Part shown: piece by piece, positions 6,923 to 26,738 of the stretch
How the letters are laid out: every line of letters begins with the position of its first letter
Numbering within the stretch: the first letter of the stretch is position 1
DNA from: a virus
Lineage: Duplodnaviria; Heunggongvirae; Uroviricota; Caudoviricetes
IMG/VR virus record: IMGVR_UViG_3300045988_007243
DNA: 64,000 nucleotides
Strand: one strand, 5' to 3'
Notes under the pieces: model-generated
Database searches by the model: none
What the model was told of the DNA's origin: nothing
The model's input: the letters and a program-made list of their open reading frames with translations, nothing else
Made by a program: the position numbers and the translations under genes

Positions 6923-7371
6923 TATTCATCTCGCTCGATAATAAATACGCCATTAACACGGTTGCAGTAATCTCTGCCTTCGTATCTGGCAGCATCACCA
7001 TATTCTGTGTATTTCTTGACAGAGCAAGGATTCTGACGACGCATGTCAATATCACACTGATTAATACCACCTGCATAGGGTAGTCCTGAAACAGAGCTTT
7101 TAACAAGGTCATCATAAACAGCTTTCAGAGATTTGAATCTGGAAGAGTTACGCAAGTAAACACCACCAACCTTCTCATCTCCCATCTTGGCTACTTGAAA
7201 GAGTAAATATTTAAGAGCTTTGATGGCTGCTTTCTTTTCATCCTTTCCAGATTCTAGATAGAACCACTCTAGCACAGACTGCTCAATAAGAATCTCATCA
7301 TTATTGGTGTCTGTGCAGAGGATTCTTACTCTATCAAGAGGGTTATTGGCTGGGTCGCCTGTATAACACAT
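6922..7371 (-). CDS. head completion/connector-like protein (hypothetical)
   Basis: 149 aa ORF immediately downstream of major capsid gene. Confidence 0.3.
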   Translation of the reverse strand: MCYTGDPANNPLDRVRILCTDTNNDEILIEQSVLEWFYLESGKDEKKAAIKALKYLLFQVAKMGDEKVGGVYLRNSSRFKSLKAVYDDLVKSSVSGLPYAGGINQCDIDMRRQNPCSVKKYTEYGDAARYEGRDYCNRVNGVFIIERDE

Positions 7372-7391
7372 TCATAACCCTCCTAAGTTTA

Positions 7392-8498
7392 TCAGCCACC
7401 TTTAGCGTCAGAACGAACATCTACCAGCAACTGAGGACGTGTGCAGTATGGCAGCATGTAAGAGTGAGCTTCAAAGTCAATACCTTCGTCACGGTCTTTT
7501 TCGTATTCGAATACGTACAGTTCCTGACCAAGTGTATTTGCATAACCCATCTTAGGACATGGACCATATGCCACTTCGAAGATGTTGTTTGCTTCACCCA
7601 GCATAGAAACGTTAGGGAAAGCATGACCTACACCAACAGTTGCTGCTACACCATCAATGCTCACCAGAGTGTGAACCTTACCACGCTTGTCTTTGAACTT
7701 ACCGTTGTACTGGACAAACTTAACACCACCGTAGTAGAAAGTGTTCATATGAGCCTGAACGCCGTCAGTACCACCAGTTCTCAGAGAACCAGTAATCTGC
7801 TGCCAAGCCAGTGGAGTCTGCTGTGCAAGATAAGCGTCACGAATCTTAGGATGCTTAACAAGTTTGCTGAAGAATACACGGTCAACGACTACGTGAATTT
7901 CTTCACCGTTGATTACAGTGCCAGTCTTAGCTTCGTCTTCCATGTGCATACGCAGTTCTTCAATAGCAGCGTCAATGTCAGCATTAGGATTGTCAAGGTC
8001 GAAGTGAATAGTCTTCTTCTCGACGTCGAACTGCTTGTACAGGTCAGCGTACAGAGTACCACGAGCATCAACAACTTTACCCTTCAGAGCTTGCATAAAC
8101 AGGAACTCACGAGTAATATCGAACTTGGTACGAATCTTCATCAGCTTCTTAGCACGTACTACAGCTTCGGTAGTCAGTTCGTTTGCAGTGCCTGGCTGAC
8201 GTACACCCTGAATTTCATCAGGAGTGATGCTTTCAACTTCTTTGAAGTACATCATTGGGAAGCTGATTTGACGAACACGCTCAGGTGCGCTAGTCTCTGC
8301 TTTACGGCTATCACGGTCTACCGCATCAAGCAAGCTAACATCCCAATCAGTCAAGTCCATAAGGAAAGTAGTTTGGGTGATTGGTGCTGAACGGAACAGA
8401 CCTAAGTTGGAAATATACCCATAAGTATTTGGGATAGACTGGACTTCACCAGTCAGGTCAGCAAGGAAAAATCTGCTTTTTTCAGAATTAGTCAACAT
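7392..8498 (-). CDS. major capsid protein (lambda gpE-like family)
   Basis: 368 aa; size, sequence character and position after protease/scaffold and decoration-like gene match lambda E-type capsid proteins. Confidence 0.75.
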   Translation of the reverse strand: MLTNSEKSRFFLADLTGEVQSIPNTYGYISNLGLFRSAPITQTTFLMDLTDWDVSLLDAVDRDSRKAETSAPERVRQISFPMMYFKEVESITPDEIQGVRQPGTANELTTEAVVRAKKLMKIRTKFDITREFLFMQALKGKVVDARGTLYADLYKQFDVEKKTIHFDLDNPNADIDAAIEELRMHMEDEAKTGTVINGEEIHVVVDRVFFSKLVKHPKIRDAYLAQQTPLAWQQITGSLRTGGTDGVQAHMNTFYYGGVKFVQYNGKFKDKRGKVHTLVSIDGVAATVGVGHAFPNVSMLGEANNIFEVAYGPCPKMGYANTLGQELYVFEYEKDRDEGIDFEAHSYMLPYCTRPQLLVDVRSDAKGG

Positions 8499-8531
8499 TG
8501 TAAAATTCTCCAGAATGTCTTATTATTGTTA

Positions 8532-8909
8532 TTACAGGCCAGTTGGTACGAAATCAATACCTTTAGCAGCCAGAGCTGTCTTGACTGCATCAGCATCAAC
8601 ACCTGATTCAAGAGTAAGCAGGTCTTTTAGTTCTGCGTCACGGTAAATACCAACCACTTTCAACTGACCGTGGTAAGACAGTTGCAGGTCTGCATAAAAG
8701 TTAACGATACATACTGAATCAGCCTGAGCTTCTTGCCCTGCTGTAACCTTAGTACCATCTGCTTTCAGAACTTCACCTACACGGTATTCTGTTGAAGCAA
8801 CCGGAGTGTACTCTTTGCGAGAGTGGCCTGTTGGGGTAATCTGTTCCCAAAGAATGATATCATTCAGAGGTTCTCTGTTACCTAACTTAGTAAAACCTTG
8901 ATATGCCAT
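8532..8909 (-). CDS. head decoration-like protein
   Basis: 125 aa ORF between protease/scaffold and major capsid, as lambda gpD is. Confidence 0.45.
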   Translation of the reverse strand: MAYQGFTKLGNREPLNDIILWEQITPTGHSRKEYTPVASTEYRVGEVLKADGTKVTAGQEAQADSVCIVNFYADLQLSYHGQLKVVGIYRDAELKDLLTLESGVDADAVKTALAAKGIDFVPTGL

Positions 8910-12593: not shown

Positions 12594-14210
12594 TCAACGT
12601 CTAAGCCCCTCATATGGGTTTCCTCTCACTAAGTCTGTGTGAGCACCCATTGATGGTGGCTTGAATAATTTAACTTCGTTAAGACTGTTGAAAGCATCAC
12701 TGGTAGCATCCACTTGGTCATCTTTAGTTTTGCCATCACCACAAAAGCCTTCAAGCTCTTGAAAGTAAGCTTCATTCCAACTACCTCTCAAGACTTTTAC
12801 AAGTCCAGCTTCAGAAGCAGCAGAAAATCCCGCAAAGCGGGTAACTTTATCTTTATTTGTTGGTTTAGCTCTTGCTCGATAGCCTTTCTCGGCAAGTTTC
12901 CTGATGAGGGATGTTGCGTAGGATTTACCAGCAGCGCCTGGGTCTTGAGGGATAAAAATACCAGTTCGCTTACCGTCACTTTCAGCAGTCAAATTAATTT
13001 GTGTTTCGACTCCAGAGGGTCTATCTCTAAATCTTACTACATCAATGATATAATAGCAACCGTCTTTTTTAGATTTACCCATCTTAACACCTGCTGTCCA
13101 GTCTGGATTAGGGTTAACCTCAGATGGTAAAGTTGCTGCTAAGTCCCATGCTCTAACATCAAATACATCTTCTGGGAGTGAATCAACAATTTCACACCAT
13201 TGTCTTTGCCAATAGTTTGAACCTTCTGCACGAGCCTTCCAGTTACCGAAACGAAGTCTTGCAACGTTTACAGAAGTGTTGTTTTCAAGCTTACCGCGAT
13301 ACTTTGGTTCTAAGAAGTCAAGAATTGGGTTATCATCAATCGTACCAGAGATGAAGGTGTATGTTTGAGGAATCTCAAGAGGGAACATTTCAAGAATCTT
13401 GTCTCTCTCCCAATCAGAAACCATCACACCATCGTTCATTACATACCAACGAATACGACCACACTTTTCAGGGTCTGGATAACCTTCTTCATCTAAGAAT
13501 GGTTCTACCCAATCATAAATAAAATGGTCTCTGTCTGGGTTCATGGAAATCTTCATGTATGAATCACCTTCAGCACCAGAACGTAGACGGGTTTGTAGGT
13601 ATGAAATCTGTGAAGCAGAGAAGTGTGTACCTTCGTCAAAGTAAATAGCTGAGTATTCAATACCCTGATGACCTTCAGCGTGCTTTTCAAGTTCTAAGTA
13701 GGTGAACTTAATAGTTGCCCCAGAAGGGAATGTGATAGTCATCTTCTGCTCGTGAGGAACCCCACCAAACTTACCAAATAGTTTCTTTGCAGCAGGCCAC
13801 AAACCACCTTGTAACTGTGTTGTATTTCGACGGAAATATACAGCATTATAGTTAGGGTCTTCAATAAACCTTAAAGAGTCCATTAACAATGCGGCAGTTT
13901 TACCAGCACCAGCAGCACCACCATAGAGAACCAAGTCAGCATTAGTATTTAAAAAGACCTCTTGAGAACCCGGTTGAGGGGCTACATAGTTCTTATCAGT
14001 CATCAATTTAAAGATAAGGCGAACTTGGTCTGGTGTGTATCTTAATAAAGTCAGAATTTGAGTTGGAAGGAATTTAGAGGGGTCTTTACCGAATGATTTG
14101 ATAATTTCTTTTACTTCATCAGAAAGCCCCAACTCTCCAGCTAGGACTTTCCTAACATCTTCCACTCGCTTCTGCTTAACAGCATTTAAGTCCATTAAGC
14201 GCCTCCGCAA
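12594..14210 (-). CDS. terminase large subunit
   Basis: 538 aa; Walker A (LYGGAAGAGKT) and Walker B (AIYFDEG) motifs, C-terminal nuclease-like region. Confidence 0.85.
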   Translation of the reverse strand: MRRRLMDLNAVKQKRVEDVRKVLAGELGLSDEVKEIIKSFGKDPSKFLPTQILTLLRYTPDQVRLIFKLMTDKNYVAPQPGSQEVFLNTNADLVLYGGAAGAGKTAALLMDSLRFIEDPNYNAVYFRRNTTQLQGGLWPAAKKLFGKFGGVPHEQKMTITFPSGATIKFTYLELEKHAEGHQGIEYSAIYFDEGTHFSASQISYLQTRLRSGAEGDSYMKISMNPDRDHFIYDWVEPFLDEEGYPDPEKCGRIRWYVMNDGVMVSDWERDKILEMFPLEIPQTYTFISGTIDDNPILDFLEPKYRGKLENNTSVNVARLRFGNWKARAEGSNYWQRQWCEIVDSLPEDVFDVRAWDLAATLPSEVNPNPDWTAGVKMGKSKKDGCYYIIDVVRFRDRPSGVETQINLTAESDGKRTGIFIPQDPGAAGKSYATSLIRKLAEKGYRARAKPTNKDKVTRFAGFSAASEAGLVKVLRGSWNEAYFQELEGFCGDGKTKDDQVDATSDAFNSLNEVKLFKPPSMGAHTDLVRGNPYEGLRR

Positions 14211-14216
14211 ATAGAA

Positions 14217-14417
14217 TTATTCAGAGTCTGTAGCAGTCTCTTCTTTCTTAACTTCGAACTTTGCATCAACAGCATCAAGAAGTGCATCCATAGATGCTTC
14301 TTTAATATCAATACCTGTTGCTACAGATAATCTATCTGCAATTGCCATGATAGTATTCTGCATAAACTCTAACTTCTTGTTAGCTTCATAAAGTTCTTTA
14401 TAAACGTTCTCGCTCAT
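14217..14417 (-). CDS. small protein upstream of terminase (possible small terminase subunit or hypothetical)
   Basis: 66 aa ORF with GGAGAAAAC RBS before ATG, directly upstream of large terminase. Confidence 0.3.
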   Translation of the reverse strand: MSENVYKELYEANKKLEFMQNTIMAIADRLSVATGIDIKEASMDALLDAVDAKFEVKKEETATDSE

Positions 14418-14452
14418 TATGTTTTCTCCAAATAATTAATCTTGTTTCCCCT

Positions 14453-14480
14453 TAAAAAAGACGGCACAGAGACCGTCAAG
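14453..14480 (-). terminator. intrinsic terminator separating tRNA array from late operon
   Basis: Minus-strand RNA: GACGGTCTCTGTGCCGTC hairpin followed by TTTTTTAAGGGG. Confidence 0.5.
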
Positions 14481-14638
14481 GAGAAACCACAATGTACGTC
14501 AGAGACATACTGTATAAGTCTTCCTATAAAGTATAACTCTGTAAAAAAGCCCTGTCTAAAAATACTCTTCGGTAGCGAAAGGAAGAATACTTATAGCAGG
14601 GCATTATTATTATTTTAATTGAGAGAGAGTAAAATAAC

Positions 14639-14714
14639 TTGGAGAATCCGAAGGGACTCGAACCCTTATAAACCTGTTTTGCAGACAGGCACATAGCCAT
14701 TTCTGTCACGGATT
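14639..14714 (-). tRNA. tRNA-Cys (GCA)
   Basis: Hand-folded cloverleaf: CCA encoded, 7-bp acceptor, T-loop ACTCGAA(rc), anticodon loop gives GCA. Confidence 0.7.
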
Positions 14715-14718
14715 CAAA

Positions 14719-14811
14719 TTGGAGGAAGATACCAGACTTGAACTGGTACACCGATTTCTCAGCTACTGGCAGTTTAGCAAACTGCTCCCTTACCTTTTAG
14801 GGTTAATCTTC
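14719..14811 (-). tRNA. tRNA-Ser (GCU), long variable arm
   Basis: Perfect acceptor pairing (ggaagat/atcttcc), canonical T-arm, 21-nt variable arm, anticodon loop gives GCU. Confidence 0.7.
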
Positions 14812-14813
14812 CA

Positions 14814-15548
14814 TTATTTCTGTAATGCGTTCTTCATTTCTGGTGTTGCAATAGCATCAATTACACCAGTTTTACAAGCATCATCAAACCAGTCTGGTAA
14901 GATACCTGCTAAGAACCCATTGATATTCGTTTTAAGGTACTCTGCAATAAGGGCAGCTTCTTCTTCAATCATCTGCACAACTTCATCTGCATAAGCTGTA
15001 ATCTTCGAGATACCTTCATTAATCTTACTAACAGCTTGGTTAGCTAAATCAGAAATAGTATCAAGACCTTTGTCAATAGCGTCTTGTAAATCACTTAATA
15101 CATCATTAACACCGTCTAGTGCACTGTTAATCGTATCAATAGCTTTTTGACCATACTCTGTAGCAACACCCATAATACCACTAAATGGTGTACAGCCAAC
15201 TTGTTCACCTGCTGCACCCATAACATTAGAATAACCTTTTGCTACCTGCATACGTGATGAAAACTCATCAATGGACTTTTGACCGTAATCTGTCAGTGTT
15301 TTGGTAGTTGATGTAGTGCTTGTCAGACTCGTGGTAAAGCTGTTAAGCAGAACTGTTGTAAGTCCAGCAGCAACAAGCTTATCTTTTACTGTAGGGTCTG
15401 ATACAGAACTAATAGAGCTTACAAGTGATGTAGAGGCAGCTACGGTTCCACCGAGAACTGCTGCACCAGTAATAAGGGGGTTAGAAAACCCTTTACCAGT
15501 TTTTAAGAGATTAAAAATCTCCTTACCTTGTTCTGTCATCTCTTTCAT
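14814..15548 (-). CDS. hypothetical protein embedded in tRNA array
   Basis: ORF-track start at 15611 overlaps a tRNA; start moved to internal ATG (MKEMTEQ...) with AAAGG RBS. Confidence 0.4.
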   Translation of the reverse strand: MKEMTEQGKEIFNLLKTGKGFSNPLITGAAVLGGTVAASTSLVSSISSVSDPTVKDKLVAAGLTTVLLNSFTTSLTSTTSTTKTLTDYGQKSIDEFSSRMQVAKGYSNVMGAAGEQVGCTPFSGIMGVATEYGQKAIDTINSALDGVNDVLSDLQDAIDKGLDTISDLANQAVSKINEGISKITAYADEVVQMIEEEAALIAEYLKTNINGFLAGILPDWFDDACKTGVIDAIATPEMKNALQK

Positions 15549-15566
15549 TAAGCACCTTTGAAATTG

Positions 15567-15641
15567 GTAGTCCAGTGGGATTTGAACCCTCTTCTCATGT
15601 TTTTCAGACACGCGCTTTAACCATATAAGCTACTTGGACTA
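15567..15641 (-). tRNA. tRNA-Phe (GAA), tentative
   Basis: Acceptor tagtcca/tggacta pairs perfectly, T-loop ATTTGAA(rc), anticodon loop gives GAA; T-stem and D-arm imperfect. Confidence 0.45.
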
Positions 15642-15646
15642 TAAAT

Positions 15647-15722
15647 TGGGGTGACCTACGGGATTTGAACCCGTATAGACCATGTTCACAGCATGGGTCA
15701 TTACCATTTATGATAAGGCCAC
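15647..15722 (-). tRNA. tRNA-His (GUG)
   Basis: Perfect T-stem and anticodon stem, loop gives GUG, discriminator C73 as expected for His. Confidence 0.65.
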
Positions 15723-15753
15723 ATTTAAGGACTCTCGTAAGAATCCTTAGAAG

Positions 15754-15829
15754 TGGCAGCGGCATAAGGATTTGAACCTTAATAAGACAGCTTCAGAGAC
15801 TGCTGCATTGCCAGTTATGCTATACCGCT
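15754..15829 (-). tRNA. tRNA-Gln (CUG)
   Basis: CCA encoded, canonical T-arm, anticodon stem with two G-U pairs, loop gives CUG. Confidence 0.55.
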
Positions 15830-15834
15830 AAATT

Positions 15835-15913
15835 TGGTACTCCATATCGGATTCGAACCGATACATAACACAGATTTTAAGTCTGGCCTCTCTGCCAATT
15901 GGAGTAATGGAGC
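15835..15913 (-). tRNA. tRNA with Leu anticodon UAA, short variable arm
   Basis: CCA encoded, A73, canonical T-arm, anticodon loop CUUAAAA; only 6-7 nt between T and anticodon arms. Confidence 0.5.
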
Positions 15914-15915
15914 AT

Positions 15916-15991
15916 TGGCGGGGGATGTTGGAATTGAACCAACTTCTTCGATTTCAAAGACCGAGGTTTTAACCTTGTAAACTAATCCCCT
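15916..15991 (-). tRNA. tRNA-Gln (UUG)
   Basis: CCA encoded, perfect T-stem and D-stem, anticodon loop gives UUG; position 1-72 unpaired. Confidence 0.55.
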
Positions 15992-15999
15992 TTAAATCT

Positions 16000-16557
16000 T
16001 TACTTTCTCAGTGGATGAATAAAGAATGCCAACATAACTCTTTCCCTTGAGAATGCTCTTTCTTCTGGGACAACACTTTTTAGTTTCCATCCAATATAAA
16101 TTCTCCAGTAAAATTGTTTACCAAAGATTTTAATTGATGGGATAAAAGCGAATAACCCCCAAGCATTACTGTTCCACATTAGGAGATAACCAGTCTGATT
16201 ATCTTCAGGGTCAGAACTTACGTTGATATTACCTTTCCACTTAGTAACATCTTTTACATCTCTTCCTAATACATGGTAAGAGAAGTTATAAGCTTTGTTT
16301 CTCCAGAGCCATCCGACTCTCTGCATATAGACACCAAGCTTACCAATCTTTCTAATCTTAGCCCATCGTTTGATATGACCTGCATCACCATCAATTGGGT
16401 TGTCATAAGTCTCCATCCATCTGAACCCGAAAGGCAAGTGTCCTTTCTTCTCACTGTAGAATGGAACTACAAAAGGTGCTAAGATAACTGCTAAGATTGC
16501 TGCAAATGGCTCTAACAAAGCTAAGAAAATCCATGAAGCATACTTTAAGTATCTCAT
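16000..16557 (-). CDS. membrane protein (hypothetical)
   Basis: 185 aa, hydrophobic N-terminal segment; lies between tRNA sub-clusters. Confidence 0.4.
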   Translation of the reverse strand: MRYLKYASWIFLALLEPFAAILAVILAPFVVPFYSEKKGHLPFGFRWMETYDNPIDGDAGHIKRWAKIRKIGKLGVYMQRVGWLWRNKAYNFSYHVLGRDVKDVTKWKGNINVSSDPEDNQTGYLLMWNSNAWGLFAFIPSIKIFGKQFYWRIYIGWKLKSVVPEERAFSRERVMLAFFIHPLRK

Positions 16558-16796
16558 TGTCTAATCCTCGTAAGGAGGTAAATGTTATTATTCGTTTCTA
16601 AACCTTCTGGTAAAACTGTCTCAAAAATAACACTCTTCAGATGTCTACCACCAAAACAATCACGTATAAATCTTTCTACTCTAGCGGGGTCACATAAGTA
16701 TCCCACTTTTAAGAAAATGTGGTGTTCAACACCAATGACCCTGACAAACTCAATACTCTCACAGTTTTCATGTTCAACTACTGTTAATGTTTGCAT
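16554..16796 (-). CDS. hypothetical protein
   Basis: 80 aa ORF between tRNA sub-clusters. Confidence 0.35.
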   Translation of the reverse strand: MQTLTVVEHENCESIEFVRVIGVEHHIFLKVGYLCDPARVERFIRDCFGGRHLKSVIFETVLPEGLETNNNIYLLTRIRQ

Positions 16797-16814
16797 AGTA
16801 TCACCTTTTTATCT

Positions 16815-16890
16815 GGCGCAGGATAAGGGATTCGAACCCCTATTAACAGCTTCGTAGACTGTTGCTCTTTCCATTTGAACTAATCCTGCA
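16815..16890 (-). tRNA. tRNA-Arg (ACG)
   Basis: CCA encoded, perfect acceptor pairing gcaggat/atcctgc, anticodon loop gives ACG. Confidence 0.65.
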
Positions 16891-16895
16891 AAATT

Positions 16896-16973
16896 GGTGT
16901 TCCAAGACGGATTCGAACCGTCACTAATACAAGGTTTGAGCTTGCATCCTCTGCCAATTGGGATACTGGAACA
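16896..16973 (-). tRNA. tRNA with Leu anticodon CAA, short variable arm
   Basis: CCA encoded, A73, perfect T-arm, anticodon loop CUCAAAC; scaffold paralogous to 15835-15913 and 17476-17552. Confidence 0.5.
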
Positions 16974-16974
16974 T

Positions 16975-17049
16975 GGTACTCACTAAAGGACTTGAACCTT
17001 TTTCTTCATCTTGTAAGGGTGATGTTTTACCATATAAACTAAGCGAGTA
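16975..17049 (-). tRNA. tRNA-Val (UAC)
   Basis: CCA encoded, perfect T-stem and D-stem, anticodon loop gives UAC (one stem mismatch). Confidence 0.55.
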
Positions 17050-17054
17050 TGAAA

Positions 17055-17141
17055 GAGGTCTGAAGTTGTGCCGCTAACTCAACTCCGTGGAATTTGTTAC
17101 GGTCTTCAGTTGACTCAAAGCGGTCTTTCACTTGACCTCTG
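17055..17141 (-). other. tRNA-sized structured element without canonical T-loop
   Basis: 87-nt interval in a tRNA-sized gap with perfectly paired 7-nt termini (agaggtc/gacctct) and internal ctgaag/cttcag repeat, but no GTTCRANY T-loop. Confidence 0.3.
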
Positions 17142-17145
17142 AATT

Positions 17146-17222
17146 GGTGCTGCTCACAGGACTTGAACCCGCATCTCCATCCTTACAAGGGATGTGTAAT
17201 AGCCAATTATACGAAAGCAGCA
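17146..17222 (-). tRNA. tRNA-Thr (UGU)
   Basis: CCA encoded, perfect anticodon stem catcc/ggatg, loop gives UGU. Confidence 0.6.
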
Positions 17223-17229
17223 TTAATTT

Positions 17230-17304
17230 GGAGCATCCAGAGGGAATCGAACCCTCAACCTCAGTTTGGAAGACTGTAATTTTCCCGTTTAAACTATGGA
17301 TGCA
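17230..17304 (-). tRNA. tRNA-Gly (UCC)
   Basis: Perfect acceptor gcatcca/tggatgc, perfect T-stem, U73, anticodon loop gives UCC. Confidence 0.65.
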
Positions 17305-17310
17305 CTAATT

Positions 17311-17386
17311 GGTGGAGAAGCAGGGAATTGAACCCTGTACTTAAGTTTGCAAAACTTATGTTTTAACCATGTAAACTACATCCCCA
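17311..17386 (-). tRNA. tRNA-Ala (UGC)
   Basis: Perfect T-, anticodon- and D-stems; anticodon UGC; G3-U70 wobble and A73 (Ala identity elements) present. Confidence 0.7.
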
Positions 17387-17392
17387 ATGTTT

Positions 17393-17468
17393 GGTACAGG
17401 TGGAGGGAATTGAACCCATCATCTTACTGATTAAGAGTCAGCCGCATAACCATTTTGCTACACCTGCA
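17393..17468 (-). tRNA. tRNA-Lys (CUU)
   Basis: CCA encoded, anticodon hairpin actga/tcagc with loop giving CUU; scaffold paralogous to 19090-19165. Confidence 0.55.
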
Positions 17469-17475
17469 TTAATTT

Positions 17476-17552
17476 GGTACACCTAGAGAGATTCGAACTC
17501 ACACTGAGCAGATTCTAAGTCTGCTGCCTCTACCAGTTGGGCTATAGGTGCA
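17476..17552 (-). tRNA. tRNA with Leu anticodon UAG, short variable arm
   Basis: CCA encoded, A73, perfect anticodon stem gcaga/tctgc, loop gives UAG; 5-nt variable region. Confidence 0.5.
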
Positions 17553-18005
17553 TTAAATCAAATGTCTTGAGAATTGACTGTGGCAATTTGGACACAAGAA
17601 CCGAAGATTCTCTTTTCTATCATCTAACCAGTTCTCGTTAATGTGGTCAACATCAAGAGTTAGAGGGTTATCCAACCAATACGGTAACTGACCACATTTA
17701 GAGCATTTGTATTCGACACCAGAGGCTATTAAAGCTCTTCTTAGTTGTGAAGACCTAGCTCTTTCACCAGATTCACGTAGAATTAGTATTTCTTCAGGCT
17801 TTCTTTTTGGTACAGTTTTAATCTTACCAGCCTTTTGTCCGAGGAAATGAGAAGTGTCTATTTCAAACTTCTCTATAACACGCTTTAGATGTGACTGAGA
17901 ACCACCTGCTGGTTTTCTCCCAAGCTTAATAAGTACTTCTCTGAATGATACTGAATCCTTTACTAAAGGCTCAAGAATATCTTTAGTCAAACTGCTACGT
18001 GCCAT
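17553..18005 (-). CDS. HNH homing endonuclease
   Basis: 150 aa; C-terminal HNH motif (LDVDHINENWLDDRKENLRFLCPNCH); free-standing inside tRNA array. Confidence 0.75.
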   Translation of the reverse strand: MARSSLTKDILEPLVKDSVSFREVLIKLGRKPAGGSQSHLKRVIEKFEIDTSHFLGQKAGKIKTVPKRKPEEILILRESGERARSSQLRRALIASGVEYKCSKCGQLPYWLDNPLTLDVDHINENWLDDRKENLRFLCPNCHSQFSRHLI

Positions 18006-18097
18006 GTGTCAATCTCCCATTAAACCTTTTTAGAGAACTTCTAAGAACCTAAGCAACAAGGTTCCACAACAAGCTGTAATAACCTTAGAAGCCCTCT

Positions 18098-18122
18098 AAA
18101 AAGACCTAAAAAGGTCTTTGCA
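18098..18122 (-). terminator. possible intrinsic terminator/hairpin
   Basis: AGACC-N5-GGTCT hairpin followed by a short U-tract on the minus strand. Confidence 0.3.
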
Positions 18123-18274
18123 TAGTCTTGTTTAATCTGGTGACTAGAACCTTTGGAGAGCTTGATATTATCTCTTCTCCGTGACACCTACTAGGTGCTT
18201 TATCAGTGTGTACGACAACACGAGGGATAAACCGAAAATGCGAGCAAGCATGGACGGTGTAAAATCTTATTAGG

Positions 18275-18362
18275 CGGTAAGTAAAGGAGTCGAACCCTCA
18301 CCGTATCTCTACAGTGGCAACAGTTTTCAAGACTGTTTGGCTGCCATTAGCCGCTACCTACC
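18275..18362 (-). tRNA. tRNA-Ser (UGA), long variable arm
   Basis: Perfect anticodon stem acagt/actgt, loop gives UGA, 20-nt variable arm; CCA not encoded. Confidence 0.6.
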
Positions 18363-18375
18363 CCTAATAAGACTT

Positions 18376-18458
18376 TGGCATGGGACGGAGGAGTTGAACC
18401 CCTTTGAAACGGTTTTGGAGGCCGTTGCTCATGCCTTAGAGTCTTAACATCGTCCCAT
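18376..18458 (-). tRNA. tRNA, identity unresolved (possibly Trp CCA)
   Basis: CCA encoded, perfect acceptor atgggac/gtcccat, canonical T-loop; internal fold ambiguous, about 7 nt longer than class I. Confidence 0.4.
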
Positions 18459-18601
18459 ACTATAATTCGAAGCTCACCGTATTATCTCAACACTGTAAAG
18501 CCCCTTCTCAGATTATTTACATGTTCTGGAAAACATGAGATACAGACCACCTCCCTACAGGAAGACCCGCTTAGGTCGTCTAAGTAATCTGCTAACTAAA
18601 T

Positions 18602-18683
18602 TGGTCGAGGCGGCAGGACTCGAACCCGCATACTCCACTTACTCGGTTAACGGCGGTTTAGAAGACCGCTGAGATACGCCCCG
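18602..18683 (-). tRNA. atypical tRNA-like gene (anticodon hairpin reads UCU, Arg)
   Basis: CCA encoded, acceptor and T-arm canonical, perfect 5-bp hairpin with loop UCU, but no room for a normal D-arm. Confidence 0.35.
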
Positions 18684-18931
18684 TAATTATCTTTAAAGAC
18701 TCTCTTAGAAAGCCCTTAAAGATGCCCACCTTATTAATCATACCGTGGGCGAGTACGCCAAATTCTTTGATGAGGGATTGGAAGACCTCACTGGTGTTTA
18801 GCCTATCAAGCTACTGCCAGAAAAACATTGTCGTTTGCATTTATTTTAAATTTGCAAAATAGACGCTACGCAACGAAAACTAAGGTTAGTATAAAGTAGT
18901 CACATCTCAATGTCAACAACTTTATTGAAAT

Positions 18932-19007
18932 TGGTACTGGTAGGTGGAATCGAACCACCGATGTTCCCTTATCAGGGGAGTGTTATAACCTTCTTAACTA
19001 TACCAGC
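18932..19007 (-). tRNA. tRNA-Ile (GAU)
   Basis: Perfect T-stem ggtgg/ccacc, perfect D-stem, anticodon loop gives GAU. Confidence 0.6.
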
Positions 19008-19008
19008 T

Positions 19009-19085
19009 TGGAGGTTCAGATGGGAATCGAACCCACATTCATAGGGCTTATGAGACCCTTGCATTACCTTATCTGCGACTGAACC
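19009..19085 (-). tRNA. tRNA-Met (CAU) (or lysidine Ile)
   Basis: Perfect acceptor ggttcag/ctgaacc, anticodon stem with GGG/CCC, loop gives CAU. Confidence 0.6.
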
Positions 19086-19089
19086 ATAT

Positions 19090-19165
19090 TGGTAGAAGTG
19101 GAGGGATTCGAACCCATCGCCTGTCAGATTAAAAGTCTGCCGCATCACCATTCTGCTACACTTCC
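19090..19165 (-). tRNA. tRNA-Lys (UUU)
   Basis: CCA encoded, anticodon loop TTAAAAG(rc) gives UUU. Confidence 0.55.
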
Positions 19166-19170
19166 ATTAA

Positions 19171-19312
19171 ATTATCTTTGTAGATAAGCTACCCAGACTT
19201 GCTTAAGGTCTGTAGCGATGTGCCTTTTTGGGTTTAAATCTAGAATTTACCCTTTCACCCTTTGTGGTCGCATACTCACAGGTAAGCTTAATAACTTATC
19301 TACAAAGATAAT
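19171..19312. repeat. 18-bp perfect inverted repeat pair flanking a 106-bp spacer
   Basis: attatctttgtagataag at 19171-19188 is the exact reverse complement of cttatctacaaagataat at 19295-19312. Confidence 0.6.
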
Positions 19313-19365
19313 TACCAGACCGTTGTTTATCATCTTAAGTGCTACCATTACACCAACTCGACATC

Positions 19366-19390
19366 TGCCGAGTGAAGGAATCGAACCTTC
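19366..19390 (-). pseudogene. tRNA 3' fragment (acceptor + T-arm only)
   Basis: gccgagt + gaagg-AATCGAA-ccttc matches a tRNA 3' half but no matching 5' half follows. Confidence 0.35.
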
Positions 19391-19424
19391 GCCTTTTCTT
19401 TACCGAGAAATAGATTGTTTAAGT

Positions 19425-19452
19425 TTTGCTGTAAACGGTCTTCTGTAAATTT
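19425..19452. repeat. 28-bp repeat tttgctgtaaacggtcttctgtaaattt, copy 1
   Basis: Identical 28-mer at 19993-20020; diverged copies at 19512-19536 and 20161-20187. Confidence 0.6.
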
Positions 19453-19619
19453 GTTGAGCCAGACCAAGTTTTAAATTTTTCAAAATTAAATTGGCTTGAA
19501 ATTTTAAGTAACTTGCTGAATTTGGTCTTCTGCTCCTTTAAAGAATACTCGTAAGAACCCTTTAAGGGAGGGGCTAAATAGCCCTCTCAAAACATCATTT
19601 TGAAATACTTATTATAAGT

Positions 19620-19696
19620 TGGCGGCTACGATGAGACTTGAACTCACATCATCTCCCGTGACAGGGGAGTATTTTCTCCAGTTAAACTACATAGCC
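19620..19696 (-). tRNA. tRNA-Asp (GUC)
   Basis: CCA encoded, perfect anticodon stem ctccc/gggag, loop gives GUC. Confidence 0.65.
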
Positions 19697-19701
19697 TTTA
19701 T

Positions 19702-19789
19702 TGGTGTGCCGTGTAGGAGTCGAACCTACCGAGTCTCAATGACAAGGGATTTACAGTCCCCACCGCTACCATCTACGGGATAACGACAC
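19702..19789 (-). tRNA. tRNA-Tyr (GUA), long variable arm
   Basis: Perfect T-stem, anticodon loop gives GUA, about 15-nt variable arm. Confidence 0.6.
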
Positions 19790-19801
19790 ATTTTAATTTA
19801 T

Positions 19802-19857
19802 ATTCAGGATAAGGACTTGCACCTTACAAATCGGTGAGCAATCGCTTCTCTCCTAAA
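19802..19857 (-). pseudogene. truncated tRNA-like element (56 nt)
   Basis: Acceptor-like ends pair, perfect T-stem taagg/cctta around a mutated T-loop ACTTGCA; too short for a tRNA. Confidence 0.3.
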
Positions 19858-19859
19858 TT

Positions 19860-19936
19860 TGGCGGTTAGTCAGGGATTCGAACCCTGTGCCATTCGCTTA
19901 ACAGGCGACCGCACATACCTTATGTGCTTCCTAACC
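19860..19936 (-). tRNA. tRNA-Asn (GUU)
   Basis: Perfect T-stem caggg/ccctg, D-stem gcac/gtgc, anticodon loop gives GUU. Confidence 0.55.
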
Positions 19937-19992
19937 ATGTTTAGTATTACCAGACCGTATCTTTCAATTTTTTCCGCTAAAAATTTCATTAA

Positions 19993-20020
19993 ATTTGCTG
20001 TAAACGGTCTTCTGTAAATT
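19993..20020. repeat. 28-bp repeat tttgctgtaaacggtcttctgtaaattt, copy 2
   Basis: Identical to 19425-19452; abuts the 3' end of the tRNA at 20020-20096. Confidence 0.6.
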
Positions 20021-20096
20021 TGGAGGCGGGTGAAGGAGTCGAACCTGCCGATACCATGCTAATGAGACATGTGAGACGCCCTTTCTCTATACCCGC
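20020..20096 (-). tRNA. tRNA-Met/Ile2 (CAU), second CAU species
   Basis: CCA encoded, anticodon stem catgc/acatg, loop gives CAU; position 1-72 unpaired. Confidence 0.5.
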
Positions 20097-20188
20097 AATT
20101 CTTAATGACCAGACCAAATCTCTTCTTTGTCCGATTTACCTTCAGATGAATAAGATTAAGTTTGCTGTAATTGGTCTTCTGTCAAAAC

Positions 20189-20266
20189 TGGCGTTCCAGA
20201 AGGGATTTGAACCCTCAAATATCCACTTTGAAAGAGTGGTGACTATACCATTTTGTCTACTGGAAC
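20189..20266 (-). tRNA. tRNA-Glu (UUC)
   Basis: Perfect acceptor gttccag/ctggaac, perfect anticodon stem ccact/agtgg, loop gives UUC. Confidence 0.65.
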
Positions 20267-20273
20267 ATTAATT

Positions 20274-20350
20274 TGGTCTCTGTTGGAGGACTTGAACCTC
20301 CGGCCTTACCGCCCCAAACGGAACGCTCTACCAAGCTGAGCTAAACAGAG
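20274..20350 (-). tRNA. tRNA-Pro (UGG)
   Basis: Perfect acceptor ctctgtt/aacagag, perfect T- and D-stems, anticodon loop gives UGG. Confidence 0.6.
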
Positions 20351-20467
20351 ATAAACTTTTCAAACTCTATGTAACCACTTTAACATTATTTTTTAGTGAT
20401 TGTCAAGAACTTTTTAAAATATTTTTCAGTATCTTAGAAAAGCTCTCATTTCGTTTCTATGTAGAAC

Positions 20468-20496
20468 ATATTAAAGGGTATTAAACACATTGTCAA
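20468..20496 (-). promoter_or_regulatory. sigma70-like promoter driving the tRNA array
   Basis: Minus strand reads TTGACA-17 bp-TAATAT about 120 bp upstream of the first tRNA. Confidence 0.55.
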
Positions 20497-20514
20497 TACC
20501 CTTTTTAAAACTTT

Positions 20515-21930
20515 TTACCAGATATAACGGTCAATCATTACTGCTTTGAGCATTACGCTGATTGGGTCAAACTTCTCACCACCAAGCAGAGCTTTTAAAG
20601 TGGCTGGAGAGAAACCAGATACCATTGCTACACCGTTATCCTTAACAGACACTTCGCAAGTACCATTACGGTTTGCTAAGTACCAGAATACCAGTTGTGG
20701 CATTTCGTATCCAGCTTTTTTGTACTTACTCTGAATTGCTTCAAAGTTTGTACGACCGTTAGCTCCATCAACCTGATTGAACTCCATATCGGAGAAGATG
20801 ATAAGCTTACTTGGCATATCTTTCTGAGTCAAGTTGTTTCTTTTACCTGTCTCAAGAATACGGTCAAAAGCAGCTTGTAAGTTAGTTGAGCCATATTCAA
20901 CGTGTCGCATCACCTGACGATGACGGTTTCGTAAATCACCACTCAGTTCGATGAAGTGAGGGTTTGTTGAATAAACCATCAACTCATTCTTAAAGCAACC
21001 TGTATTGCGTTCTGCTACATACAAGGCAAGTGATACACCAATATCCAGAGCAGTAATGGAGCCAAAATTCACCCAATACATTGAACTTGACACATCAGAC
21101 ATACATAGAATGTTTTCACCCTCTGCCATCCAGTTTGGTAGTGCTTTCCACTGCTCATTAGCAACATCTGCATTACCATACTTAACAGATTTAATCACAT
21201 CGTATGGGTAAACAGCACCAGCATTAATCTTAGTCTCACCCTTTGATAAGGACTCGATGTAAGCTTTGTAGCGTTCTCCATCTTTGCGGTTAAACAGTTT
21301 TTGGTAACGTGCAGCAGCAAGTGAAGGAATCTTACTGTAGTCAATCTTACCAAACTCATTAGCAGAGATTTTTTGCTCGACTGTATCAGATAGTGCAGAC
21401 AACAGTGTGCGGTACTCTTTCTCACTCAAGTTGGCAAACTTGCAGAAACGTTTTACAAACTGCTTATGACGTGGTTTGACTCGTGGTAACCACTTAGCTG
21501 CCAAACCTGCTGTTGCAGGGTCTAGTAATGCTGCTTCTAAATGTTTGAAGGCATCTGTCTCGAAACGAGTACCTACGAAGATTTTGAAGTCATCAAAACG
21601 ACCAAGTTCTGCAATCTTATCCATAATGCGAAGAACCTGTGTAGGCTCTAAAACTTTATCTTCAATCGCTTGAAGCAAAACAGTTCTGAAGGCTTTACGC
21701 TCACCCATACCTTCTCGTACATCTCGCATATGCAGTAAAATACGAACTGCAACATCAACATCCTCACGCAAAGCTTTGTAGAACAGGTCTGGTAAGATTT
21801 CTACATTGCTACGGCTTGAACCAGCAGCTTTGTAAAAGTCTACAAGAGCAGACATTGATGAAGTATGGTTTACAGCACCATTTTCAGTTCGACCTGCATG
21901 AAGGTGCGCATGTTTAAATAATTCGCTCAT
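20515..21930 (-). CDS. vWA (MIDAS) domain protein, possibly Ro/TROVE-like
   Basis: 471 aa; DxSxS MIDAS motif (MSDVSSSM) within a vWA-like fold; about 280 aa N-terminal domain of unknown type. Confidence 0.5.
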   Translation of the reverse strand: MSELFKHAHLHAGRTENGAVNHTSSMSALVDFYKAAGSSRSNVEILPDLFYKALREDVDVAVRILLHMRDVREGMGERKAFRTVLLQAIEDKVLEPTQVLRIMDKIAELGRFDDFKIFVGTRFETDAFKHLEAALLDPATAGLAAKWLPRVKPRHKQFVKRFCKFANLSEKEYRTLLSALSDTVEQKISANEFGKIDYSKIPSLAAARYQKLFNRKDGERYKAYIESLSKGETKINAGAVYPYDVIKSVKYGNADVANEQWKALPNWMAEGENILCMSDVSSSMYWVNFGSITALDIGVSLALYVAERNTGCFKNELMVYSTNPHFIELSGDLRNRHRQVMRHVEYGSTNLQAAFDRILETGKRNNLTQKDMPSKLIIFSDMEFNQVDGANGRTNFEAIQSKYKKAGYEMPQLVFWYLANRNGTCEVSVKDNGVAMVSGFSPATLKALLGGEKFDPISVMLKAVMIDRYIW

Positions 21931-22012: not shown

Positions 22013-22384
22013 TTATTTTTTGAGGGTTGCAACAGCAGAGAACGTTGGTTTGTTATCTGTCTGAGACTGACCACCGTTATCAGGAGTCTTCTTAGTGTCT
22101 GCTGCAATGGCTTTCATCTCACCTGCTGAGTGAGTCATGATAGTTTTACCGACCTCAATCATACTCTTGATGGTTACATCGTCTGTGTTTAACCCGAACT
22201 CTGCAAGCTTAGCAGCGTCCCTTGTAACAATCGCCTCAAACAACTTTGCAGCAAACTCAGCAGAATTATCAATGGTCAGTTGAGCTTTTACAAGTGAGCT
22301 TTTGTTACGAGAGCCTTTTGGTCTTCCAGATGGGTTTCCAGATTGGCCTTTTTTAAACTGGCCTTTGTTTGTTCTGTTTTTCAT
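22013..22384 (-). CDS. hypothetical protein (GNPxGRPKG motif)
   Basis: 123 aa, basic N-terminus with GQSGNPSGRPKGS motif. Confidence 0.4.
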   Translation of the reverse strand: MKNRTNKGQFKKGQSGNPSGRPKGSRNKSSLVKAQLTIDNSAEFAAKLFEAIVTRDAAKLAEFGLNTDDVTIKSMIEVGKTIMTHSAGEMKAIAADTKKTPDNGGQSQTDNKPTFSAVATLKK

Positions 22385-25143: not shown

Positions 25144-25607
25144 TGCAACTCTCAAGAAAAGGTTTAGATGCTATTAAGTTCTTCGAAGGTCTGAAGTTAG
25201 AGGCTTACGAAGACTCTGCCGGAATCCCAACAATCGGGTATGGGACAATCCGTATTGACGGGAAACCTGTTAAGATGGGTATGAAAATCACGGCTGAACA
25301 AGCTGAACAGTATCTTCTCGCAGATGTTGAAAAGTTTGTTGCAGCAGTGAACAAAGCTATCAAGGTTCCAACTTCTCAGAATGAGTTCGATGCACTTGTA
25401 AGTGAAACATACAACATCGGTATCACAGCTATGCAGGATTCTACATTTATCAAGCGCCACAATGCTGGTAATAAGGTAGGTTGTGCAGAAGCTATGCAGT
25501 GGTGGAACAAGATTACAGTCAAAGGTAAGAAGGTCACTTCAAACGGCTTGAAAAACAGACGTAGAATGGAAGCTGACATTTATCTTGACAGTGTATATCC
25601 AAAGTAA
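25143..25607 (+). CDS. endolysin, GH24 (T4/lambda-type lysozyme)
   Basis: 154 aa; catalytic E-8aa-D-5aa-T pattern (EGLKLEAYEDSAGIPTIGYG). Confidence 0.75.
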   Translation: MQLSRKGLDAIKFFEGLKLEAYEDSAGIPTIGYGTIRIDGKPVKMGMKITAEQAEQYLLADVEKFVAAVNKAIKVPTSQNEFDALVSETYNIGITAMQDSTFIKRHNAGNKVGCAEAMQWWNKITVKGKKVTSNGLKNRRRMEADIYLDSVYPK

Positions 25608-25614
25608 TATCTTC

Positions 25615-26057: not shown

Positions 26058-26445
26058 TAACAGTCATATCCACGTTAAAGTTGATGTCAGTCGTTACAGC
26101 GAAAATGAGGAACTAGACCTGCGAGATGCTCTTCTATTTGAGAAGAATGGCAATCTTCATTTGCATTTTGAAGGTACAAATACGTACCTCCACAGATGCC
26201 GAGATGATGCAGACGGTTGTCCTGTTTTTGCTTGGTATAATTTAGAGTTTCCTCTTTATGCCATCCACTATCCAGATGGTGGAGAAGACTGGACTACCCA
26301 ATCAATCTTTGATGAGCTTAACGGTATTCCAGTTGAGCAAGAAGAGCAAGAACCTGTTGAACTCACCTTTACTTTCATCAAAGAAGAGAAAGTTGGTGAT
26401 TTGTCTGTAACTGAAGCAATTCAAGTTTCACAGGTTATTCGTTAA
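26050..26445 (+). CDS. hypothetical protein
   Basis: 131 aa ORF, overlapping start/stop with neighbours. Confidence 0.4.
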   Translation: MNNNSHIHVKVDVSRYSENEELDLRDALLFEKNGNLHLHFEGTNTYLHRCRDDADGCPVFAWYNLEFPLYAIHYPDGGEDWTTQSIFDELNGIPVEQEEQEPVELTFTFIKEEKVGDLSVTEAIQVSQVIR

Positions 26446-26738
26446 TGAGCAAAGTACAGGTTATCTTCCCTATTTGTGACTTCTCACTAGAGCGTGAACT
26501 TGACCTGTACGAAGAAATTACTGACGAAATCATCTGGTCTGTTGTAGAAGAGGCTATCAAGAAGCTGTATGGTGGCCTCTTAAACCCATCAAGTAAAAAG
26601 CTCAATACTAAACAAGTAGCTGATACGTACACTTCATACGATGCCTACAACAAACCTTTTGAGAATACCTGCTTTGACCTTATGGTAGGTAATAATAAAG
26701 TCAACTATTTCTTCGTCAGAGAGTTTAACGATGAGTAA
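26445..26738 (+). CDS. hypothetical protein
   Basis: 97 aa ORF. Confidence 0.35.
   Translation: MSKVQVIFPICDFSLERELDLYEEITDEIIWSVVEEAIKKLYGGLLNPSSKKLNTKQVADTYTSYDAYNKPFENTCFDLMVGNNKVNYFFVREFNDE

Follow-up and report, generated by a model that had tools for sequence, protein, structure and literature searches.

A conserved structured RNA in the tRNA operon of a Felixounavirus, a candidate Y-RNA-like partner of a Ro60-like phage protein

What is a perfect inverted repeat doing inside a phage tRNA operon? The stretch analysed here, 64,000 nucleotides (nt) of the IMG/VR virus record IMGVR_UViG_3300045988_007243 (hereafter the window), belongs to a Felixounavirus and is about 96% identical to Escherichia phages SP22 and Alf5. 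It carries an array of 25 tRNA genes (14640-20350), every one on the minus strand, and between tRNA-Asp and tRNA-Lys(UUU) of this array lies the inverted repeat (IR), with ATTATCTTTGTAGATAAG at 19171-19188 (+) and its exact reverse complement at 19295-19312. A sequence-only reading had pointed to this perfect 18-bp repeat, to a hairpin inside it (cagac at 19194-19198, nine nucleotides, gtctg at 19208-19212) and to tRNA-Lys(ttt) close by (19090-19165, minus strand, 4 nt from the repeat), and all three observations proved correct. It had left the choice between a miniature inverted-repeat element, a recombination site and the base of a long structured RNA. The last of these is the one supported by our analysis: the repeat is very probably the closing stem of a conserved structured RNA, and the element enclosed by it, the IR element, is a conserved non-coding RNA (ncRNA) that has remained unannotated. 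For the locus as a whole we consider it rather likely, judging from sequence and predicted structure, that this structured ncRNA is Y-RNA-like and shares a tRNA operon with the gene of a Ro60-like protein.

Structure and conservation of the IR element

The repeat is not a product of chance. The arm ATTATCTTTGTAGATAAG occurs exactly twice in the window, without any further match even at up to 3 mismatches, a threshold at which shuffled sequences gave 0.12 matches on average; by a rough estimate, only about 1e-4 perfect 18-bp inverted repeats within 150 nt are expected per 64 kb. A repeat finder extended the arms to 22 nt with 95% identity (19170-19191 and 19292-19313). Folding the region as RNA had been among the checks suggested beforehand; the minus strand from 19313 to 19170 folds into three or four hairpins enclosed by a closing helix of 24 bp (P1), with a minimum free energy (MFE) of -47.8 kcal/mol (z = -6.2; 0 of 200 shuffles equally stable). 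P1 reaches 24 bp as RNA because one mismatch of the DNA arms and the inner end are G.U pairs. To evaluate the structure by comparison, we aligned 11 sequences with MAFFT, taken from the Felix type, the Moogle type (L017-L022; L numbers denote lineages and loci) and L034/L102, which were chosen because they are diverged enough for such a test. Pairing figures in the following list refer to this alignment.

19170..19313 (-): whole IR element, a 144-nt structured RNA composed of P1, a multi-hairpin interior and a 3' hairpin (MFE, RNAalifold, pair counts, covariance model)
19290..19313 (-): P1 5' strand, AAUUAUCUUUGUAGAUAAGUUAUU; 24 pairs, 8 of them changed on both sides, 97.3% of cells paired
19170..19193 (-): P1 3' strand, GGUAGCUUAUCUACAAAGAUAAUU; stops 4 nt ahead of the tRNA-Lys 5' end
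19194..19212 (-): 3' hairpin CAGAC-CUUAAGCAA-GUCUG, stacking immediately on P1; the 9-nt loop is conserved; 5 pairs, 2 of them compensatory, 100% of cells paired
19283..19289 (-): junction AAGCUUA, immediately following the 5' strand of P1; could pair with the loop of the 3' hairpin as a candidate pseudoknot
19230..19252 (-): central hairpin GGGUAAAU-UCUAG-AUUUAAACCC; the UCUAG loop is invariant between Felix type and Moogle type, the stem sequences differ
19263..19280 (-): hairpin UGUG-AGUAUGCGAC-CACA; counterpart GGGG-AGUAUGCGGC-CCCC in L034/L102, absent in the Moogle-type group
19090..19165 (-): tRNA-Lys(UUU), whose linkage to the element is kept in all lineages

Over the element alignment as a whole, 94.8% of the cells were paired, whereas controls in which the partners were slid by 1-3 columns reached at most 47% and at most 3 double changes. 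The consensus calculated independently with RNAalifold recovered the same P1 and 3' hairpin, with 11 compensatory pairs in these two helices. Moreover, 31 G.U cells are valid on the minus strand only, compared with 3 that are valid on the plus strand only: read as minus-strand RNA, the inner 6 pairs of P1 and a number of variant positions form G.U pairs, whereas in DNA or on the other strand they are A.C mismatches. This speaks for an RNA helix on the tRNA strand and against a DNA palindrome. A covariance model (R1) built from the three closer groups, i.e., Felix type, Moogle type and L034/L102, scored the window with 161 bits on the minus strand vs 46 bits on the plus strand. Rfam scans returned no family match to the IR element, and the remaining matches (miRNA, snoRNA, Plastid-ycf2 etc.) were dismissed as chance or antisense-tRNA artefacts. 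An intrinsic terminator was rejected as well: there is no minus-strand call at this site, the stem is rich in A+U instead of G+C, and what comes next is UAAU and the tRNA in place of a U tract.

The junction is complementary to the loop of the 3' hairpin in the window (GCUUA/UAAGC), in L017 (GCUAAA/UUUAGC, a compensatory difference) and in L034 (UUGCUUA/UAAGCAA). This complementarity, with its one clear compensatory change, suggests a putative loop-junction pseudoknot, though each lineage alone is weak (p between 0.02 and 0.4 each). Alternatively, AAGCUUA could be a degenerate motif of the UUACAGCAA type, which characterizes the neighbouring modules described below.

The element shows at least 95% identity across 190 phage records; with synteny preserved, it is found at this position in 237 phage records and, with different arm sequences, in diverged lineages. 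More distant relatives were fetched through the Ro60-like protein encoded upstream of the array (52-63% identical): L033 (Yersinia phage P778), L034, L035 and L102-L106. All of them carry an element of 134-166 nt with a closing stem of 20-30 bp that ends 0-10 nt before tRNA-Lys(UUU), a spacing found in 10 lineages. The closing-stem sequences are unrelated between those lineages, and the stems of the distant relatives carry the bulges and internal loops typical of RNA. The 3' hairpin stacked on the stem recurs, and its 9-nt loop is nearly invariant across seven lineages (CUUAAGCAA in the window, L034, L102, L035 and L103; CUUUAGCAA in the Moogle type; CCUUAGCAA in L033). What lies upstream of the element varies (tRNA-Asp, tRNA-Ala, with or without module D), but tRNA-Lys(UUU) remains linked to it throughout. 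Among the distant equivalents, R1 recovered solely the copy of L035 (E = 0.022), and so the homology of the long-stem elements in L104, L105, L033 and L106 rests on position and architecture. The model also matched a stem that brackets tRNA-Ser in L033.

A Ro60-like gene and a family of small RNA modules

The gene directly upstream of the tRNA array in the sense of transcription encodes a protein of 471 aa; the IR element lies 1.2 kb downstream of it on the same strand, and four small modules, A-D, are interspersed with the tRNA genes in between.

20515..21930 (-): gene of the 471-aa protein, Ro60-like fold, Pfam domains DUF2828 and DUF7788 (Pfam, AlphaFold2, Foldseek)
20377-20406 and 20468-20496 (-): two sigma-70-like promoter matches upstream of tRNA-Pro, consensus matches only
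20106..20184 (-): module A, bulged stem and UUACAGCAA, between tRNA-Glu and tRNA-Met
19947..20017 (-): module B, bulged stem and UUACAGCAA, between tRNA-Met and tRNA-Asn
19456..19535 (-): module C, bulged stem and AUUCAGCAA; weak Rfam Dicty_Class_I_RNA match of 14.9 bits (19460-19527)
19312..19448 (-): module D, YrlA-type tRNA mimic directly 5' of the IR element; closing stem AGACCGUU/AACGGUCU, then UUACAGCAA
19374-19390, 19356-19373 and 19338-19354 (-): T-arm, closed 7-bp acceptor-like hairpin and D-arm of module D

The 471-aa protein belongs to PHROG 850, "RNA-binding protein", and has homologues in 710 phage records. Neither single-sequence nor profile searches matched it to a PDB entry; the relationship to Ro60 is seen by fold comparison only. 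The AlphaFold2 model, calculated from 44 homologues, has a mean predicted local distance difference test score (pLDDT) of 88.4 and a predicted template modelling score (pTM) of 0.88. Compared with the PDB by Foldseek, its best 12 matches are all Ro60/TROVE structures aligned over the full length (E values from 2e-8 to 1e-6, template modelling scores of 0.5-0.67), among them Xenopus Ro60, Deinococcus Rsr and the Ro60 of Thermus phage phiLo. This corresponds to the structural conclusion reached for the orthologue gp130 of Felixounavirus Bas63, which counters the Ppl defence and whose describers speculated, naming none, that some of the downstream "tRNA genes" are Y RNAs (PMC11482910, preprint). 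By their sequence, both promoter matches are probably candidate starts of a transcript comprising 9 tRNAs and 5 non-tRNA RNAs. A DUF5681 gene (22013-22384, minus strand) directly precedes the Ro60-like gene, and, among the relatives with Pfam data (all those listed above but L033), the same two-gene synteny exists in L034, L035 and L102-L105, though not in L106.

Modules A-D share one order of parts: a 4-bp outer helix, a bulge formed by AGA in the 5' and G in the 3' strand, an inner helix AGACCNN/NNGGUCU, (U)UACAGCAA and a variable insert. All four display in full the common feature of UUACAGCAA placed directly after the 5' strand of a stem that joins the ends. Their helices covary between paralogs (outer helix TGAC, TTAC or GAGC; inner helix AA/UU vs GU/AC) and between orthologs (e.g., AGTATC, AGACTCT, AGTGTCT, AGAATC, GGACTGT, GGACTC); shuffled sequence gave 0.5-1.5 module-type hits per 6 kb. 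Module D combines an invariant T-arm GAAGGUUCGAUUCCUUC, the acceptor-like hairpin and a D-arm GUGUAAUGGUAGCAC with GG, in the arm order of YrlA (Chen et al. 2014, PMC4201824). Its acceptor-like hairpin covaries in three forms (ACUCGGC/GUCGAGU, ACACG/CGUGU and ACCCUUC/GAAGGGU). ARAGORN made no call on this tRNA mimic, and Rfam matched its T-arm only (14.9 bits). GGCGAAGG in module D is not conserved; several genomes have GGAGAAGG. Modules D and B end alike, as their common 3' end is the 13-nt direct repeat ATTACCAGACCGT (19311-19323 and 19946-19958).

The same signature recurs beside far more distant homologues of the gene. We scanned 31 non-redundant loci of uncultured phages (338 kb; protein identity 30-44%) for CAGCAA with a helix of at least 7 bp that starts 1-4 nt upstream and spans at most 140 nt. 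MAFFT alignments of the distant modules misregistered the 3' strands; this structure-driven scan with shuffles was used instead of a family covariance model. It yielded 33 hits on the gene strand vs 18 on the opposite strand, with 8.2 expected from shuffles; 26 of the gene-strand hits lie within 2.5 kb of the gene, and 17 of the 31 loci have at least one of these. The homologous genes beside the signature are 29-44% identical. Convincing hits show the full architecture, with a bulge in the outer helix and a terminus resembling CUGU or CUGGU: L029 has three tandem modules 100-260 nt upstream of the gene, L058 has four modules, and Listeria phage List-36 (L109) has three directly upstream of the gene. 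Two modules of L058 and one of L062 are tRNA mimics, which the Rfam YrlA model scored at 39.1 bits (E = 5e-5), 29.6 and 25.5 bits (gathering threshold 69). In L071 (30% identity), a rod-like long-stem CAGCAA module precedes tRNA-Lys(UUU) by 29 nt. Same-strand tRNA genes occur no more than 5 kb from the gene in 26 of 44 distant loci.

Transcript data exist for relatives of the Listeria locus. According to published RNA-seq of a P100-like Listeria phage, transcription was highest in three non-coding regions, all of them no more than 2 kb upstream of the Ro-like gene, and these abundant RNAs were proposed to be Y RNAs (PMC12282133). The top region (26,236-26,727 in phage CKA15), left unexplained by the authors, maps to a ROOL RNA in List-36 (L109 1926-2477; RF03087, 91.5 bits, E 2e-18, just below the gathering threshold of 99.1). 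The three CAGCAA modules of List-36 map, by position only, to CKA15 25,216-25,610. Within about 1.5 kb after the Ro60-like gene, L109 also encodes a metal-dependent phosphohydrolase and a "tRNA splicing ligase" (5575-7521), a gene order that recalls the bacterial rsr-yrlBA-rtcBA RNA-repair operon. About 100 nt past the end of the Ro60-like gene in the uncultured phage L080, a match resembling the c-di-GMP-I-GGC riboswitch was found (6473-6546, 55.9 bits, gathering threshold 59).

Relation to known RNAs and to the Ro60-like protein

The arrangement resembles that of bacterial and phage Y RNAs (YrlA and YrlB of Salmonella and Mycobacterium, Yrl1 and Yrl2 of Thermus phage phiLo) in several respects. 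These RNAs are about 100-145 nt long and have a long stem made by their 5' and 3' ends; as with the IR RNA, their genes adjoin, on the same strand, the gene of a ring-shaped Ro60-fold protein (HEAT-repeat ring plus vWA; here a predicted fold); and they occur in tandem clusters with a tRNA-mimic sibling, the role taken here by module D with its T-arm, closed acceptor-like hairpin and D-arm. The differences are equally specific. The protein here belongs to another sequence family (DUF2828 and DUF7788), and its sequence matches neither TROVE nor any PDB entry; the motif CGAA or GNCGAAN0-1G is absent and the family motif is UUACAGCAA; the IR stem is unbulged over 24 bp, and the window has no Rfam Y_RNA/YrlA match; finally, the RNA lies within a tRNA array, and its release is probably the work of tRNA-processing enzymes. 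We do not file the IR RNA as a Y RNA because the CGAA-type motif and the Rfam models fail and binding is only putative; judged by its sequence features, it may be classed as a Y-RNA-like variant tied to a different family of Ro60-fold proteins.

The small modules also resemble another group, the Dictyostelid Class I RNAs (RF01414). By their listed hallmarks, the latter begin with AAG and end with CUGU; their terminal stem of 6 bp covaries, its 5' strand is followed by CCUUACAGCAA, and the middle varies (PMC7919456). The modules, whose genes are clustered, likewise begin with a sequence like (A)AG and close with one like CUG(G/U)U; a covarying stem joins their ends, (C)(C)UUACAGCAA comes directly after its 5' strand, and the interior is variable. 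Every one of the hallmarks is present in small modules, whereas they are not clearly present in the IR element, which differs by its 24-bp stem and its length (144 nt vs about 60 nt) and retains only remnants of an AGCAA-type motif. Modules with these hallmarks are:

L109: 3119-3385
L029: 5679-5897
L058: 3727-4667
L062: 4524-4912
L101: 4679-4734
window: 19460-19527

RF01414 matched modules weakly in four lineages (14.9, 23.1, 23.6 and 30.1 bits; gathering threshold 41.5), with no match in five other loci and none on the IR element. Class I RNAs were reported to be unique to Dictyostelia and to bind CIBP, a protein with an RNA recognition motif (PMC7919456). The uncharacterised protein DDB_G0281243 was among four proteins pulled down with DdR-21, which is a Class I RNA (bioRxiv 10.1101/2020.04.05.026054). 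DUF2828 also has plant members. Should the Class I RNAs work with a DUF2828-type Ro-like protein, DDB_G0281243 would be a candidate; the literature searched contained no link between Class I RNAs and Ro60.

Stable non-tRNA RNAs in a phage tRNA cluster are familiar from T4, whose species 1 and 2 RNAs (rnaC and rnaD) measure 119-139 nt and are encoded on the tRNA strand. On folding, a common architecture was rejected and only the context is shared: rnaC folds with a 3' T-arm, i.e., tRNA-like, and has neither a long terminal stem nor the AGCAA motif. T4 is not known to have a Ro60-like gene.

Does the IR element belong to the family defined by the stem and UUACAGCAA? The chances appear about even. 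In the window, AAGCUUA stands where the modules have UUACAGCAA, and CUUAAGCAA is found in the 3' hairpin loop. The 3' hairpin itself (ACAGACC-UUA-AGCAA-GUCUGG) reads as a miniature of the module stem (ACAGAAGACC-...-CAGCAA-...-GGUCUGG). In other lineages the relation is closer: the IR-equivalent of L035 was itself found by the family scan (TTGCA-aa-GAATCTT-tc-AGCAT...GAGATTC-cc-TGCAA, motif UUUCAGCA), and the 5' stem strand is followed by UUUACAGCC in L103 and by AUUAGCAA in L106. The rod-like CAGCAA module of the distant L071, which likewise precedes tRNA-Lys(UUU), also speaks for membership.

Several observations weigh against the IR RNA being a Y-RNA-like family member. The motif after P1 is only AAGCUUA in the window lineage, so that membership depends on the 3' hairpin and on other lineages, and P1 lacks the AGA/G bulge. 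The Rfam models Y_RNA and YrlA matched neither 19150-19625 at E <= 10 nor 14000-21500 at E <= 1. The motif of known Ro60 ligands (GGUCCGA, GNCGAAN0-1G or CGAA, in the stem or bulge near the 5' end) does not occur, with no CGAA in 19170-19313. Two further helices of about 20 bp or more in the operon, a bracket around tRNA-Ser and a second inverted repeat, IR2, would fit a generic role in processing. Supplied by itself, from a plasmid or after transfer into T7, the protein gp130 counters Ppl (PMC11482910), and therefore at least that activity needs no phage RNA. Finally, the element is dispensable for growth and plaque formation, because the natural genome L013 lacks it. There, a deletion (8307-8542) has fused the T-arms of module D and tRNA-Lys(UUU), removing the remainder of module D, the IR element and most of tRNA-Lys(UUU); by its sequence it looks like a recombination between T-arm sequences. 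On balance, a Y-RNA-like partner of the phage Ro60-like protein is still the best reading of the IR RNA, with about even odds from the sequence evidence that it is such a partner.

If it is such a partner, its life could be pictured as follows. The RNA would be co-transcribed with the tRNAs from the promoters near 20400-20500, and its 3' end would be set by RNase P at the 5' end of tRNA-Lys, 4 nt beyond P1. The 5' side would be released either by a cut between P1 and module D or by RNase III of the host acting within the helix of at least 20 bp, leaving a compact RNA with paired, exonuclease-resistant ends. The IR RNA would be a diverged, enlarged member of the surrounding small-RNA family, in which a bulged stem of the 5' and 3' ends is followed by UUACAGCAA and which, YrlA-type mimic included, appears to travel with the protein family in distant phages. 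The Ro60-like ring may bind the RNA via the stem/AGCAA element, as component of a stable ribonucleoprotein, and the bound RNA might gate the ring or tether it to factors that act on tRNA or other RNA during infection. A wider proposal must be put forward tentatively, since we think it doubtful: the IR RNA and modules A-D might be the missing partner RNAs of the DUF2828/DUF7788 family, in which the bulged stem with UUACAGCAA replaces CGAA, and the Class I RNAs might be of the same kind, with a DUF2828-type Ro-like protein.

Felix O1-like phages serve in typing and therapy, and the RNA partners of their Ppl-countering Ro60-like protein have so far only been guessed at. The 144-nt long-stem RNA and the four small RNAs supply concrete candidates, together with a defined putative recognition signature, which Listeria, Vibrio-type and uncultured jumbo phages also carry next to their homologues of the gene. 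About 600 nt that are now blank or occupied by spurious open reading frames (ORFs) can be re-annotated in hundreds of phage genomes. If the likeness of the Class I RNAs should reflect a common protein partner, it would provide a testable handle on the 20-year-old question of their function.

Alternative readings of the stem

The stem might be a processing stalk and nothing else, i.e., an RNase III site for cutting the long tRNA precursor that encloses 100 nt of functionless spacer. P1, with 24 bp here and 20-30 bp in all lineages, has the length of an RNase III stalk (about 20 bp of near-continuous double-stranded RNA), far beyond what closing a fold requires. As in the stalks of rRNA operons and T7 early transcripts, the helix of at least 20 bp is formed by flanking sequences in a polycistronic precursor, and there are three such helices here. 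Two of them are the bracket and IR2. A 14-nt inverted repeat (93%; 18261-18274/18363-18376) brackets tRNA-Ser(UGA), its flanks covary in L033 and L105, and stacked on the acceptor stem it gives about 21 bp, the size of an RNase III substrate. IR2 (18026-18103, minus strand) has 20-nt arms (90%) whose 20-bp stem covaries; the 5' stem strand runs directly into UUACAGC, a conserved UUGUUGCU lies in the interior, and in relatives without the HNH ORF (17553-18005) the element adjoins tRNA-Leu(UAG). A loop-loop contact between the IR element and IR2 was considered and dropped, as its extension does not covary in L017. RNase III participates in the processing of the T4 tRNA cluster and cleaves the T4 species 1 RNA. 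The idea of RNase III cleavage gains weight because of the two other long helices in the operon, and we give it an even chance that the stem is indeed cut by this enzyme; that the element is dispensable in L013 also agrees with a mere stalk. What such a stalk leaves unaccounted for is the interior. About 100 nt of maintained structure would be needless, yet the 3' hairpin loop is conserved in seven lineages, and the UCUAG hairpin, the AGUAUGCGAC loop and the loop-junction complementarity are conserved as well; known RNase III stalks enclose rRNAs or mRNAs, unlike the conserved multi-hairpin domain of 100 nt found here, where cleavage is putative. We therefore regard a stalk without further function as unlikely, though it deserves to be taken seriously. 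As regards the stem itself, this explanation is compatible with a structured, Y-RNA-like ncRNA, whose long stem probably doubles as a processing stalk.

According to another explanation, the element is a cis-acting leader dedicated to tRNA-Lys(UUU) that controls maturation, stability or dosage of the phage copy of a tRNA attacked by host anticodon nucleases. The tRNA-Lys(UUU) is the target of PrrC and PARIS, and phage copies of tRNA-Lys can rescue. The element remains fused to it within 0-10 nt while the upstream neighbour changes, both were lost together in L013, and the long-stem module of the distant L071 precedes tRNA-Lys(UUU), too. On the other hand, the element has no complementarity to the tRNA itself, the similar long-stem IR2 precedes a different tRNA, Leu(UAG), and the L013 deletion is explained by T-arm recombination rather than by a common function, all of which makes a dedicated leader improbable.

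A function at the level of DNA, as site of a dimeric protein, as origin or cruciform, or as the recombination site that had been suggested, is very improbable. A perfect 18-bp palindrome would covary in both arms as DNA, too, but wobble pairs valid on one strand only would then remain unexplained. Furthermore, 100 nt of conserved structured sequence separate the arms, the distant stems contain RNA-typical bulges and internal loops, neither iterons nor an integrase were seen, and the phage is of the virulent type.

A miniature inverted-repeat element, or the scar of one, would agree with a short non-coding segment bounded by terminal inverted repeats of 18-22 nt, but it can practically be dismissed: there is a single copy in the window and none in 5,426 complete E. 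coli genomes, the flanks (...CATTAA and TACCAGACC...) contain no direct repeat and hence no target-site duplication, and the syntenic site is the same throughout the 237 phage records and the diverged lineages with different arms. The sequence-only reading had held that a single copy without duplication would leave a structural role only; this is roughly what was found, yet the structural role is one within a conserved RNA gene.

Just as implausible is a coding region in the form of the plus-strand ORF 19218-19448 (76 aa), which begins with ATG and has similar counterparts annotated as hypothetical proteins in Bas63 (bas63_0137 and bas63_0138) and Alf5 (ORF044c), but runs antisense over the IR element and the T-arm and D-arm of module D, is not conserved in frame (C-terminus at 76, 85 or 107 aa through frameshifts, N-terminus lost in L011, L014 and L015), has neither a counterpart in Moogle-type genomes nor a Pfam match and is probably spurious.

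One further sequence of the array drew our attention. At 18605-18683 (minus strand), Rfam reports a tRNA match of 31.7 bits, just above the gathering threshold, that was missed by ARAGORN. Between tRNA-Ile and tRNA-Ser, relatives carry a tRNA-Arg(tct) or a tRNA-Trp(cca) at this place, and the sequence may be a degenerate tRNA.

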